Assembly (NCBI GenBank): GCA_035528115.1 | Contig: DATKZF010000001.1 | Span: forward strand, 160,312 to 224,311 | Source: Candidatus Bipolaricaulota bacterium | GTDB lineage: Bacteria; Patescibacteriota; Patescibacteriia; UBA11705; DATKZF01 | Direction: 5' to 3' | Length of the DNA stretch: 64,000 bases | In this document: positions 46,917 to 49,388 of the stretch, one piece after another | Layout of the letters: every line of letters begins with the position of its first letter | Numbering within the stretch: the stretch's first letter is position 1 | Program-made: the position numbers and the translations under genes | The notes under the pieces: generated by a model | Databases searched by the model: none | What the model was told of the DNA's origin: nothing | The model's input: only the letters and a program-made list of their open reading frames with translations

Positions 46917-46947
46917 AGTTAGATTATTATAACACACTTTAAGAGCA

Positions 46948-46976
46948 TTGACAAACCCTGAAATTTAGGATAAATT
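46948..46976 (+). promoter_or_regulatory. Putative promoter TTGACA-N17-TAAATT for the 47008 operon
   Basis: TTGACA at 46948-46953. The -10 is weak. Confidence 0.3.
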
Positions 46977-47007
46977 ATATGGCCAACCTTGGAAAGGAGG
47001 CTGTACA

Positions 47008-47409
47008 ATGAAAAGAGCAGTCGTCATTTGCGGCCTCACCTGGAAGGCCGGGAAACTGATTCAAATCCTCGCGGCATACGCCAAACTAAACGTGGCCGCG
47101 CCGGACACTCTGCGTATCAGGGAGGAAAGCGGATTTGTCGGCAAGCTGGAATGCAACCTTCATCAAGCGAATGCCAATCCGCTTTACAGCTTTGTGCTCG
47201 AGGATTTCTTTATGCCGCTAAGCTACTATCCCTTCGCGGACGGCACGTATCTGGAGGAAGACGTGCAGGCGGTCAGGCATGAGCGCAATTTGACTTTTGT
47301 CTTTCTCTGCCTGAAAACGCCACAAGGAACGACTCTTCGGGACTCGCTTTGGGACAGACAATCAATGGACAAAGCGATAAACGATCAAAAACAAGGAGGA
47401 ACTCCATGA
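47008..47409 (+). CDS. Hypothetical protein (first gene of a GC-richer island)
   Basis: GGAAAGGAGG ribosome binding site before the ATG. Length 133 aa, local GC about 57%. Confidence 0.55.
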   Translation: MKRAVVICGLTWKAGKLIQILAAYAKLNVAAPDTLRIREESGFVGKLECNLHQANANPLYSFVLEDFFMPLSYYPFADGTYLEEDVQAVRHERNLTFVFLCLKTPQGTTLRDSLWDRQSMDKAINDQKQGGTP

Positions 47410-47705
47410 GCCTGATTCTGCATCCGCTGGCGGAAACTCTCATCAAGGACGGAAAAAGAGAGTTGAGCGGAGAGTACATCGACGTCAAGCTTGGCGGTGA
47501 AAAAGGCCGGCGACCCATGCCTCTCCAGAAATACACATTGCCTGATGGCCGGATTCTGGTCGAGAAGATGCAGGGTCAAGACAAAGACGGCCGCGTCTTC
47601 CTGACGCTCGAGGAGAACGGCGCGCCAGTGCTGGGACTGTCATGGACAGCTCAGGCGATGAAAGATGAGGCTACGGTTGACAATTGGGACGGCAGGAGCT
47701 GGTAG
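47406..47705 (+). CDS. Hypothetical protein
   Basis: AAGGAGG ribosome binding site, with ATGA overlap onto the previous stop. Length 99 aa. Confidence 0.5.
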   Translation: MSLILHPLAETLIKDGKRELSGEYIDVKLGGEKGRRPMPLQKYTLPDGRILVEKMQGQDKDGRVFLTLEENGAPVLGLSWTAQAMKDEATVDNWDGRSW

Positions 47706-47733
47706 CTCCGGTTCCACTCCAAGGAGGAAAGCA

Positions 47734-48138
47734 ATGAAACAGCTCATCGTTCTGATGCTCGCGTGCGCCCTGGTGTCCGGCTGTTCGGCTCACCAAAATG
47801 GTGTAACCGTTCAGTACACTCCTTCCGAGAAAGAAATCTCAGGAGGAGTCCAGAGGCTGTTGTCCGAAGCGAAATTCGAGGACGGCAGCTACCTTTTGAC
47901 CAACGACTATGAGCTGCCCGGAAGCAGACTCTGGACGTTGCAGCGGGTCAGATTCGCCTCGAGCGTCTTCTCCCGCTATCGCGCTTATCAAGGCCTCAAA
48001 GTGCCTTGGCGCGCATTTCTCGTCAACGTGAACAACGGCCAACTGGCTGATCTGATCGCCTTGGAGGAGATCGATATCAAGGACGCAAAGCCGCCTCCGA
48101 GGACGGAGTTCGACCCAAATTCCATCTTCGACATGTAA
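47734..48138 (+). CDS. Hypothetical lipoprotein
   Basis: AAGGAGG ribosome binding site. MKQLIVLMLACALVSGCSA is a signal peptide with lipobox. Confidence 0.6.
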   Translation: MKQLIVLMLACALVSGCSAHQNGVTVQYTPSEKEISGGVQRLLSEAKFEDGSYLLTNDYELPGSRLWTLQRVRFASSVFSRYRAYQGLKVPWRAFLVNVNNGQLADLIALEEIDIKDAKPPPRTEFDPNSIFDM

Positions 48139-48169
48139 GCCTGGTTCATTAGCCGGGCTTTTAAAATAC

Positions 48170-48342
48170 GTTACGAATTACATTCCTCTATTAAACTTTT
48201 AGGTTATCTGTTACGTATTACAATATTCTCAAGATTAAAGCTATAAGTAAATATAATTTGCAACAACAGATTGGAAGCCAAATGGAATCTTGTAATTCGT
48301 AACAACCGCTTGAAAGCTATCCAGCAGATTGTAATTCGTAAC
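48170..48342. repeat. MITE-like element family A (copy with a duplicated right end)
   Basis: GTTACGAATTACA at 48170-48182. TGTAATTCGTAAC at 48291-48303 and again at 48330-48342. Confidence 0.7.
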
Positions 48343-48422
48343 AATATTATTTCAAAACCGTCCCCGTCTCCATATACAGGTGGAAAAATTCAACTAAATT
48401 TAGCTAAAAAATAAAGCAATCC

Positions 48423-48451
48423 TTGACTTTTTATTGATTTTGTGATATAAT
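48423..48451 (+). promoter_or_regulatory. Sigma-70 promoter TTGACT-N17-TGaTATAAT (extended -10)
   Basis: TTGACT at 48423-48428 and TATAAT at 48446-48451, preceded by TG. AAGGAGG follows, and the ATG is at 48504. Confidence 0.6.
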
Positions 48452-48503
48452 GTTATTAGTTTTCTAAACAACGACAGGCCTGAATGGCCTAAGGAGGCAC
48501 GAG

Positions 48504-49268
48504 ATGAAGCAGTGGATGTGCGCCATGTTGGCGCTGGTTCTGGTCGGCTGTTGGCAGGCGCCGCAGCCGGAAAAAACGATGTACAACCCAAACCCCATGA
48601 GCCGGCTCGAAGCGGAATGCCCGCAAGGCACGTTCCTACTGGAGCTGAATTCCAGCACGTTCATGGCTCAATTCTGCTCGGACAGTTACTTTGTCCAGCA
48701 GGGTCCCTTCAAGGAGTGGGAGCATGGACGACTCTCACGAGAAGGGCAGGCGCTCGACGACAAAGCTGTCGGACAGCACACCTTCATGAACTACGACCGT
48801 GATGGCAACGTCGCCGAGATCCGCAAGAGCGACTACAACTCCAAGGGAGAGCAGGACGGCTTCGAGACCCGCTACTACGCGGACGGCCAGGTGGAGGTCA
48901 TTTGGCCGTTCACCCGAGGGATGGAAAACGGCATCACGGAGTGGTATTACCCCAGTGGAAGTTTGGGCGGATACTGCAACTACCTCGTCGGGCTCCAAGA
49001 TGGCGAGTGTGCCAGCTTTTTCCCCGACGGTCGTCTCTGGGAAGCTCTGGAGTACGACCACGGCAGATTGGTAGGAGCGTACCTGCCCGACTCGCCAGCC
49101 ACGTTCGTAGATGCTGGCGGGAATGGGTACGTCGAGTACCTCAACAATGAGGGGCTCGTGACCACCAGCGGCCGGTACGAAAACGGCCGTAAGGAGGGCT
49201 GCTGGCAGAACAGGCACAGGGAATCCGTCCTCTATATGGACGGGAAAATCCTCGGCTTTAACTGCTAG
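48504..49268 (+). CDS. Lipoprotein with MORN-like (YwqK-type) repeats
   Basis: MLALVLVGCW lipobox. Repeated YYxDGxxxxxxxxxxGxxxGxxxxYYPSG modules. GC about 62-67%, the highest in the window. Confidence 0.65.
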   Translation: MKQWMCAMLALVLVGCWQAPQPEKTMYNPNPMSRLEAECPQGTFLLELNSSTFMAQFCSDSYFVQQGPFKEWEHGRLSREGQALDDKAVGQHTFMNYDRDGNVAEIRKSDYNSKGEQDGFETRYYADGQVEVIWPFTRGMENGITEWYYPSGSLGGYCNYLVGLQDGECASFFPDGRLWEALEYDHGRLVGAYLPDSPATFVDAGGNGYVEYLNNEGLVTTSGRYENGRKEGCWQNRHRESVLYMDGKILGFNC

Positions 49269-49290
49269 TTTGTTTCTCCTTTTCAACCAG

Positions 49291-49328
49291 ACCGCCAAGG
49301 GCACCTCCTTTGGCGGTCGATTTTTTTT
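49291..49328 (+). terminator. Rho-independent terminator
   Basis: ACCGCCAAGGGCACCTCCTTTGGCGGTC hairpin followed by a T8 run. Confidence 0.7.
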
Positions 49329-49388
49329 AAATTTTGCAAAATGATTGACGCGCTAAAACAATGGAGCAATGAGACAATGGAACAATCG

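Follow-up and report, generated by a model that had tools for sequence, protein, structure and literature searches.

Two putative horizontally acquired transcription units between tgt and ogg of a CPR-like bacterium, one of them bracketed by a duplicated ogg 3′ end

Morons are independent transcription units added to a phage genome, such as gene 15 of HK97 and the lipoprotein gene bor of lambda (PMC3594210). Cis-mobilisable elements (CIMEs) are decayed integrative and conjugative elements (ICEs) or integrative and mobilisable elements (IMEs) that no longer have genes for integration and transfer but retain both attL and attR, located at the target gene's 3′ end (PMC5704250). In 125 aquifer genomes of Patescibacteria, hundreds of genomic islands and transferred genes were reported, accounting for up to 13% of genome length, and most of the transfers were between Patescibacteria (PMC12455944). 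Here we describe a GC-rich patch of 2.4 kb between the genes tgt and ogg, within a 64 kb stretch deposited as Candidatus Bipolaricaulota bacterium (contig DATKZF010000001.1, positions 160,312 to 224,311). The whole stretch is called the window below; all coordinates are positions within it, and it alone served as compositional background. The patch is a block of four plus-strand open reading frames (ORFs), isl1 to isl4, and we read it, with a probability of about 0.7, as two independently acquired horizontal transcription units (isl1-3 and isl4) in a variable tgt-ogg spot of a genome of the candidate phyla radiation (CPR)/Patescibacteria type. An initial annotation had remarked that the region looks like an insertion, and this is supported by five independent lines of evidence: GC content together with GC at third codon positions (GC3), the usage of codons and tetranucleotides, Shine-Dalgarno sites not seen in the host genes, absence in relatives, and an att-like duplication of the ogg tail. 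That foreign DNA was inserted, by either of the mechanisms weighed below, is close to certain. The accompanying picture of one island later cut by a repeat did not hold up, and isl1-3 and isl4 are most likely separate acquisitions. The features of the locus are:

45789–46937, minus strand: tgt (queuine tRNA-ribosyltransferase), native left flank; Pfam TGT 465.8 bits, TIGR00430 455.6 bits.
46926–46976, both strands: back-to-back divergent promoters between tgt and isl1; consensus scan, 11/12 (tgt) and 10/12 (isl1-3).
46954–46926, minus strand: tgt promoter, TTGTCA-17-TATAAT; consensus scan 11/12.
46948–46976, plus strand: isl1-3 promoter, TTGACA-17-TAAATT; consensus scan 10/12.
47008–47409, plus strand: isl1, orphan protein of 133 aa without a lipobox; AAGGAGG site, singleton cluster.
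47406–47705, plus strand: isl2, orphan protein of 99 aa; its start overlaps the isl1 stop (ATGA).
47734–48138, plus strand: isl3, orphan lipoprotein of 134 aa (MKQLIVLMLACALVSGC); lipobox VSGC at residues 14–17.
48139–48166, plus strand: intrinsic terminator of isl1-3, GCCTGGTT-CATT-AGCCGGGC then TTTT; hairpin in the minimum-free-energy fold of 48139–48360, and sequence reading.
48170–48342, no strand assigned: family-A intergenic palindromic repeat; 13-mer GTTACGAATTACA in + + − − order, spacing 39–40 nt.
48340–48377, minus strand: displaced native ogg 3′ end, attL-like; reads Y M E T G T V L K TAA, 16-nt core at 48357–48372.
48393–48407, plus strand: conserved 15-mer ACTAAATTTAGCTAA, 15 nt upstream of the −35 box of the isl4 promoter; unique in the window.
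48423–48451, plus strand: isl4 promoter, TTGACT-17-TATAAT with a TG extended −10; consensus scan 11/12.
48476–48497, plus strand: hairpin in the 5′ untranslated region, AGGCC-TGAAT-GGCCT, with AAGGAGG directly 3′; read from the sequence.
48504–49268, plus strand: isl4, lipoprotein of 254 aa with MORN_2-type beta-hairpin repeats; lipobox LVGC at residues 13–16, Pfam MORN_2, AlphaFold2 (AF2) model, family alignment.
49290–49328, plus strand: strong intrinsic terminator of isl4, a 12-bp stem with 8 GC pairs, then a T-run; hairpin 49290–49318, T-run to about 49328.
49355–49388, no strand assigned: tandem CATTGT-type 8-mers (minus-strand sense) between the isl4 terminator and the ogg stop.
49381–49419, minus strand: present ogg 3′ end, attR-like; reads Y L E T G T V L K TGA, 16-nt core at 49399–49414.
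49389–50012, minus strand: ogg (archaeal-type 8-oxoguanine N-glycosylase/DNA lyase), native right flank and target gene; Pfam Ogg-HhH 198.6 bits, NF002305 240.3 bits.

ORFs and profile matches agree with the arrangement first noted, of four plus-strand genes between tgt and ogg on the opposite strand. The textbook promoter claimed at 48423–48451 and the strong terminator at 49291–49328 are likewise present as listed, the promoter scoring 11/12 with its extended −10 box.

Like phage morons, the two units are short add-ons with their own promoter and terminator at sequence level, a deviant GC content, and small envelope proteins or lipoproteins as products; unlike morons, they lie in no recognisable prophage, with no phage gene within about ±8 kb and no significant PHROG match. 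The isl4 unit resembles a CIME in being flanked, where a protein-coding gene ends, by a pair of att-like copies, in an element-borne sequence that restores the gene, and in having neither an integrase nor a transfer gene. It differs from a CIME in its size (~1 kb, one gene) and in that no cognate ICE or IME of the same specificity is known. We know of no report of ogg as a target gene of such elements. The islands of Patescibacteria are similar in their CPR-type host and their detection by composition, and the isl4 homologues are found in putatively CPR-like, low-GC genomes. The present block is much smaller than typical IslandViewer calls, with exact junctions and a contrast in Shine-Dalgarno usage, and its products are orphans, not metabolic or translation proteins. 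Overall, the case is consistent with the frequent horizontal gene transfer reported in Patescibacteria (PMC12455944). Among the features commonly used to recognise genomic islands, deviant composition and absence in relatives are seen here, there is no mobility gene, and flanking repeats are found for isl4 but not for isl1-3.

The most informative feature of the locus is the duplicated 3′ end of ogg. The two copies (48340–48377 and 49381–49419) form a direct repeat of 38–39 nt with a local alignment score of 40, shuffled sequences giving a mean of 15 and a maximum of 24, and the exact 16-mer shared by them, ACCGTCCCCGTCTCCA, has only two occurrences in the window (0.02 expected). The left tail has the codons TAT ATG GAG ACG GGG ACG GTT TTG AAA TAA and the functional ogg tail TAT TTG GAG ACG GGG ACG GTG CTG AAG TGA; they differ at 5 of 30 positions, three of the changes being synonymous and one a stop-to-stop change. 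The last 12 nt of the left remnant (GTTTTGAAATAA) are identical to the ogg end of a close relative (L002, see below) and use host-preferred codons; the functional tail is GC-richer and ends in island-style codons (GTG CTG AAG TGA). The pair reads as two homologous ogg tails, each evolved under selection, which bracket isl4. No donor-derived stretch is apparent in the body of ogg, which has a native GC content (40.2%).

The remnant, including its stop codon, lies 0–3 nt from the right end of the family-A repeat, on the isl4 side, and the att-like duplication brackets isl4 alone. Because an ogg tail stands between the repeat and isl4, the repeat adjoined ogg before isl4 came, and because the displaced tail sits by the repeat, isl4 most likely arrived independently of isl1-3. 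A family-A element at 48170–48342 between the third and fourth genes had thus been correctly recognised, but with an ogg tail beside it the repeat does not bisect one island.

The block is foreign in composition, and the excess is greatest at third codon positions. The values for the four genes are:

isl1: GC 51.5%, GC3 59%.
isl2: GC 56.3%, GC3 68%.
isl3: GC 54.8%, GC3 70%.
isl4: GC 58.7%, GC3 77%.

For the 60 other genes of the window the mean GC is 43.0% (sd 3.1, maximum 53.0) and GC3 49.7% (sd 4.6), so that the island genes stand 8 to 16 GC points above them. The 2.3 kb segment starting at 47001 ranks first in the window for GC (52.3%, against 43.2 ± 2.3%) and has the largest tetranucleotide distance (z 5.05). 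Codon-usage likelihoods of the island genes have z values of −2.6 to −3.5, isl2, isl3 and isl4 being the three lowest in the window (−3.3 to −3.5), and leucine is encoded by CTC/CTG in 71% of cases in the block, compared with 50% TTG in native genes. The compositional contrast described in the initial annotation is therefore real, but both of its ranges (57–67% for the island, 45–55% for the neighbours) were too high: the peak 300-nt window has 59.7% GC and the neighbouring genes 39–46%. Native genes of 60–65% GC, together with relatives carrying the same genes at the same place, had been named as the observation that would speak for a native origin; none of the window's other genes exceeds 53% GC, and the relatives are without the island genes.

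Translation signals also separate the block from its surroundings. All four island genes have AAGGAGG 6–8 nt 5′ of the ATG, in agreement with the strong AGGAGG ribosome binding sites noted earlier, whereas in the 60 native genes the 21 nt upstream of the start contain no AGGAGG. When all in-frame starts in the first 60 codons were allowed, just 2 of 36 native genes had so much as a weak Shine-Dalgarno-like motif at the annotated start. The island relies, then, on a translation signal not used by the host genes of the window. Native starts are preceded by A/T-rich sequence, and several lie 7–10 nt 3′ of a TATAAT box (for example at 46916–46931 and 9880–9899, and at the starts of 22231–23454 and 35428–37671), which suggests leaderless or very short-leader mRNAs.

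Comparison with relatives places the four genes in this genome only. The two closest relatives are L002, a metagenome-assembled genome (MAG) from GTDB (tgt 78%, ogg 78% identical), and L082 (Ga0180438; tgt 77%, ogg 75%). Both keep the order rSAM … ogg - tgt - … hyp119 - band7, with ogg-tgt spacings of 533 bp and 834 bp, respectively, compared with about 2.45 kb from the tgt start to the ogg stop in the window. None of isl1-4 is present in these syntenic spacers, the relatives being only ~77–78% identical in Tgt. The synteny check proposed at the outset thus found unrelated genes in both spacers: a conserved 80-aa gene on the strand opposite to tgt (L002 9562–9804; L082 6793–7035), and in L082 also a 116-aa gene at 7070–7420, again opposite to tgt, that is a distant paralogue of the first (28% identity, E 0.001). 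These spacer genes have a native GC of 34–37%. Homology of these spacer genes with isl1-4 was considered and none was found. From the contents of the spacers, tgt-ogg is a variable slot for small opposite-strand genes.

Regarding the host, Tgt, Band-7 and the penicillin-binding protein (PBP) are closest to proteins of MAGs labelled Kuenenbacteria, Paceibacterota, Parcubacteria or Patescibacteria (50–60% identity). The public record as Candidatus Bipolaricaulota (HUT21971–HUT21975, VMX18_01025–01040) is at odds with this CPR-like gene content and order, and the label is probably wrong or the bin mixed. A Logan contig (SRR8554643) is 100% identical to 38504–56084 (17.6 kb), including all junctions, and this contig is recorded from three samples.

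These observations can be combined in the following scheme. Unit 1 (~46948–48166) would be transcribed from the promoter back-to-back with that of tgt, through isl1, isl2 (ATGA-coupled) and isl3, to the hairpin terminator. Unit 2 (~48373–49398) would be a self-contained cassette of about 1 kb comprising the 15-mer, the extended −10 promoter, the leader hairpin with its Shine-Dalgarno site, isl4 and the terminator. We infer that unit 2 recombined within the last ~10 codons of ogg, in an identical core of 16–22 nt. The incoming DNA would have brought an ogg tail of its own, which now completes the gene (GTG CTG AAG TGA), and the original tail (GTT TTG AAA TAA) would have been pushed beyond the cassette, where it survives beside the family-A repeat, formerly the direct neighbour of ogg. 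The resulting arrangement, B-O-P′ … P-O-B′ with the 3′ end of the target gene restored, would match the pattern left by site-specific integrases. Such 3′-end geometry arises from the integrases of prophages, ICEs and IMEs. Site-specific integration as the route of entry of isl4 is put at a little below even odds. Since an integrase is absent from the window, the cassette would be what is left of a larger, decayed element, or else have been mobilised in trans. The integration model predicts an empty site (attB) of GTAACAATATTATTTCAAAACCGTCCCCGTCTCCAAATACCATAAATAC and a circle junction (attP) of GGAACAATCGTCACTTCAGCACCGTCCCCGTCTCCATATACAGGTGGAAAAATTC; recombination with a related strain would instead predict donor-like ogg genes that end in GTGCTGAAGTGA, followed by the CATTGT repeats.

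Several findings weigh against this account. The predicted attP junction (…CACTTCAGC-ACCGTCCCCGTCTCCA-TATACAGG…) has no match in the viral contigs scanned, and neither an attP-bearing element nor an empty site was found there. No integrase, transposase or phage gene was detected among the ~39 window proteins scanned (the called genes of 38.5–56 kb and 20 further window proteins), which include all those within about ±8 kb. The entry of isl1-3 lacks a flanking-repeat signature, local alignments around them scoring 17–18, no better than chance, and isl1 and isl2 have no detectable homologues, although no valid deep remote-homology search covers these two. Both units have promoters and spacers that are AT-rich, as the host is. 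In the stretch from the isl4 terminator to ogg there are 8-mers of a family found elsewhere in this genome; the donor may have been a related genome, or this stretch may be something other than plain foreign DNA. Lastly, the homologues of isl4 in two other genomes (L162 and L169, described below) are still GC-elevated although apparently inherited vertically, so elevated GC alone is no proof of recency.

With these points in mind, the alternatives can be weighed. A route for isl4 that needs no dedicated integrase is homology-facilitated or illegitimate recombination with DNA of a related strain, in which the cassette already lay 3′ of ogg. This would be in keeping with the lack of an integrase, with the host-type 8-mers on the ogg-side arm, and with two tails that differ nearly only at synonymous sites, as orthologous ogg tails would. 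A double crossover, however, would replace the tail rather than duplicate it, an exact identity of 16–22 nt is short for an anchor, and the native GC of the ogg body shows no stretch derived from a donor. The three known members of the isl4 family, moreover, do not share a locus: isl4 lies at the ogg tail, and its two homologues adjoin a tRNA array. We regard this route as unlikely, though it deserves a place beside site-specific integration. Acquisition of all four genes as a single island in one event, split later by insertion of the family-A element, is less probable again. The genes share their strand, elevated GC, codon bias and AAGGAGG sites, and a repeat present in many copies could be mobile, but the displaced ogg tail with its stop lies between repeat and isl4, the att-like duplication encloses only isl4, isl1-3 have a promoter and terminator of their own, and GC3 is 59–70% in isl1-3 compared with 77% in isl4.

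That the genes are native and vertically inherited, with a GC content raised by function (through amino-acid composition or the level of expression, for instance), is very improbable. A B12/radical-SAM gene of the window (51596–53068) does reach 53% GC (GC3 67%), is conserved in place and is GC-elevated in the relatives too, and the MORN family is GC-elevated in two related genomes. For the island genes, however, the excess is greatest at third codon positions, synonymous codons and Shine-Dalgarno use are unlike those of all 60 native genes, both syntenic relatives are without them, their proteins are singleton clusters among ~15 billion, and the ogg tail is duplicated. Least credible of all is a chimera of assembly or binning, with foreign reads joined into a CPR contig. 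The mismatch between the Bipolaricaulota label and the CPR-like gene content means that the bin is possibly mixed, but a native repeat, native-like promoters and an ogg tail alternate with the GC-rich genes over distances of 50–300 bp, and the separate Logan assembly is identical across all junctions, the contig being recorded from 3 samples. The reading of two independent acquisitions is therefore retained.

A conserved promoter module came to light with the relatives of isl4. In a full HMMER scan of 1.84 billion representative proteins, isl4 had one full-length relative, P0006 (267 aa, 36.5–39% identical depending on the alignment method, E 4e-46). A third member of the family, L169_270, is 53% identical to P0006 and 40% to isl4 by BLASTP. 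The genomes carrying them, L162 (P0006) and L169, are taken to be CPR-like; they have 31–38% GC, the two genes themselves 48–49%, and in both cases the gene lies directly 3′ of a tRNA array and 5′ of a PcfJ-like gene. The donor search suggested earlier therefore yielded homologues of isl4 in two low-GC genomes and none of isl1-3, and no donor taxon can be named. All three cassettes carry the 15-mer ACTAAATTTAGCTAA 15–16 nt upstream of the −35 box (16 nt in L162), and it is absent from 160 other loci compared. The extended −10 box TGATATAAT stands upstream of isl4 and both homologues, and a small hairpin occurs just 5′ of the Shine-Dalgarno site in all three, with one compensatory pair between L162 and L169 (a weak indication). 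In the alignment of the three proteins, the lipobox cysteine and four further cysteines (39, 58, 233 and 254) are invariant; for the latter four, an exported protein with two disulfide bonds would fit. The flanks of the gene are 86–90% identical in nucleotide sequence between L162 and L169 and the lipoprotein just 53%, as expected of a fast-evolving surface protein; in this lineage, the MORN gene appears to be vertically inherited.

Viral contigs gave no match to an isl4-family pattern. A pattern of the 15-mer and −35 box had one match there, in L168, which lies in a coding region of an unrelated AT-rich phage and was dismissed as chance.

In L162, a block of 53–58% GC at 1–8990 codes for a helicase of SNF2 type, an exonuclease, a pair of ParB-like proteins and a protease resembling trypsin, and carries a tRNA-Asn gene of its own. 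The block sits at the tRNA-Thr of the host tRNA array, is absent in L169 (compared at 6286–6524), and is probably a prophage or integrative element. The possibility that P0006 is cargo of this helicase/ParB/tRNA block was rejected, as L169 has the MORN cassette in the same place without the block, and because L169 lacks it, the block is a separate insertion.

The isl4 protein matches Pfam MORN_2 (PF07661) with 30.9 bits, above the cut-off of 29.6, and at the level of its repeats it has 4295 library matches, mostly long MORN-repeat proteins. Its AF2 model consists entirely of beta hairpins (pLDDT 68 overall, about 90 for residues 31–130), and Foldseek matches of the model include MORN1, the N-terminus of SET7/9 and the single-layer beta-sheet lipoprotein OspA (E 1e-5 to 1e-3, but low TM scores of 0.2–0.4). 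With MORN_2/YwqK-like proteins and MORN-type surface lipoproteins, isl4 thus shares a MORN_2 match over the gathering score and a predicted sheet of beta-hairpin repeats. With the Leptospira LIC20035 adhesin family (NF033566) it shares a predicted lipid anchor, but the score against that family, 27 bits, is below threshold (cut-off 250), and isl4 differs further from this family and from YwqK in having only two full-length relatives and no YwqJ-type toxin partner. No YwqJ-type toxin gene is adjacent; isl4 is monocistronic, and its neighbours are the family-A repeat and ogg. The description of the last gene as a lipoprotein with YwqK/MORN-like repeats is accordingly upheld for the lipobox and the MORN_2 repeats, and the label of YwqK antitoxin of a YwqJK module does not fit, there being no toxin gene beside it. 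An integron gene cassette was also considered and rejected: isl4 has a strong promoter of its own, no intI was found, and what flanks the cassette is a repeated ogg tail rather than an attC hairpin. The protein is likely to be an exported, lipid-anchored surface protein, with the beta-hairpin repeats acting as a binding or adhesion module.

Proteins isl1-3 gave no Pfam, NCBIfam, PHROG or PADLOC match, and a phmmer search of the PDB returned noise only (designed armadillo repeats, E ~0.01). Searches of phage and plasmid collections by tblastn and blastn, with isl1-3 and with the whole block, produced nothing beyond one chance-level match (E 0.9), pattern scans of viral contigs for isl1 and isl2 found no match, and a word search of 5.8 billion proteins with isl3 found only itself. 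An AF2 model of isl1, made with no alignment, has a pLDDT of 40 and is uninformative. All four island proteins are singleton clusters among ~15 billion proteins, and none matches a defence-system model in PADLOC. Of the products, two had been called lipoproteins, and lipoboxes are indeed present in isl3 (VSGC) and isl4 (LVGC); isl3, too, is predicted from its lipobox to be an exported, lipid-anchored surface protein. The block's role is most likely the addition of envelope or surface proteins.

The flanking genes are typical of the window, which has 43.2% GC overall, nearly all genes on the minus strand, and housekeeping functions in the remainder (ATP synthase, enolase, phosphoglycerate kinase (PGK), a NiFe-hydrogenase cluster, MurF, PBP and MraW). 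The profile scores of tgt and ogg are well over the Pfam and NCBIfam cut-offs. An independent gene call gives tgt as 375 aa, and its true start is likely the ATG at 46916. The −35 boxes of the tgt and isl1-3 promoters overlap, and the segment 46938–47007 has 37% GC, similar to native intergenic DNA.

The 13-mer GTTACGAATTACA that characterises the family-A repeat has 21 matches in the window (1.5 expected). The copy at 48170–48342 has an extra, degenerate minus-strand 13-mer near 48253–48265 and folds into a long nested hairpin (z −6.7), and the repeat region (48139–48503) has 33% GC. Family-A occurs at six other sites (near 5409–5563, 45101–45195, 53178 (53178–53190), 56024–56118, 58147–58281 and 59876–59969), always intergenic and mostly just 3′ of the stop codon of a gene co-directional with its neighbour. 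It is absent from the relatives' loci and has no Rfam match, and Logan contigs end at two of the copies. The element at 48170–48342 is interpreted as native and as the ancestral spacer downstream of ogg. A motif similar to that of family-A, GTCTACGAAyyTACAAA, lies 3′ of the MORN cassettes in L162 and L169, with two copies 39 nt apart in L162. A Bro-N domain protein (58539–59387) is flanked by the family-A copies at 58147–58281 and 59876–59969. The Bro-N family is typical of phages and mobile elements.

The 8-mers at 49355–49388 belong to the same motif family as an 80-nt repeat with two copies, 86% identical, at 506–585 and 38012–38096. This repeat ends in tandem 8-mers CTCATTGT/TACATTGT/TCCATTGT followed by a GC-rich hairpin; one copy adjoins tRNA-Glu (37880–37954), and the repeat and 8-mer family has no Rfam match.

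A few other genes of the window stand out. The gene for the B12-binding radical SAM protein at 51596–53068, with 53% GC and GC3 67%, ranks highest outside the island. In L002 and L082 it has orthologues that are 66% identical, in the same position, and also GC-elevated relative to their own genomes; this suggests either a shared acquisition of older date or a constraint on composition. Beside it lies a 124-aa ORF (50678–51052) of 49.6% GC. A plus-strand gene at 41628–43277 encodes a 549-aa protein of ~12–13 tandem repeats of 87 nt (29 aa); it is a codon-usage and tetranucleotide outlier (z ~4) of native GC, with weak repeat-level relatives in L002 and L082. An N6/N4 DNA methylase gene (9899–10747), one of very few other plus-strand genes, has a native GC of 39.8%, carries a TGATATAAT box 6 nt 5′ of the ATG, and is divergent from the minus-strand gene 9131–9835.

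Small foreign islets that bear an att scar but lack an integrase are a well-known phenomenon, and the isl4 locus is a well-resolved new example. Two features go slightly beyond the routine, namely the island-only Shine-Dalgarno sites and the promoter module conserved among the MORN lipoprotein cassettes; in this genome, an AGGAGG site alone is a practical marker that splits foreign from native genes. A further suggestion, which we consider doubtful, is that isl4-type units are a mobile ‘lipoprotein cassette’ of ~1 kb specific to CPR-like bacteria, which would depend on a recombinase in trans, target the 3′ ends of housekeeping genes or the edges of tRNA arrays, and renew the surface repertoire. 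If so, the module would comprise an operator (the 15-mer), a promoter with extended −10 box, a leader with a hairpin and Shine-Dalgarno site, the gene of a fast-evolving MORN surface lipoprotein and a terminator, and its Shine-Dalgarno-led translation in a Shine-Dalgarno-poor host would represent a distinct expression regime, with surface renewal serving host attachment or phage exclusion. CPR organisms are uncultured, and horizontal gene transfer in them is usually deduced from composition or phylogeny; the locus provides junctions at base-pair level for gene acquisition in a streamlined, CPR-type genome. Orphan envelope lipoproteins are the class of protein expected where an episymbiont is in contact with its host or with phages, which makes the four genes reasonable candidates for studies of surface interactions.

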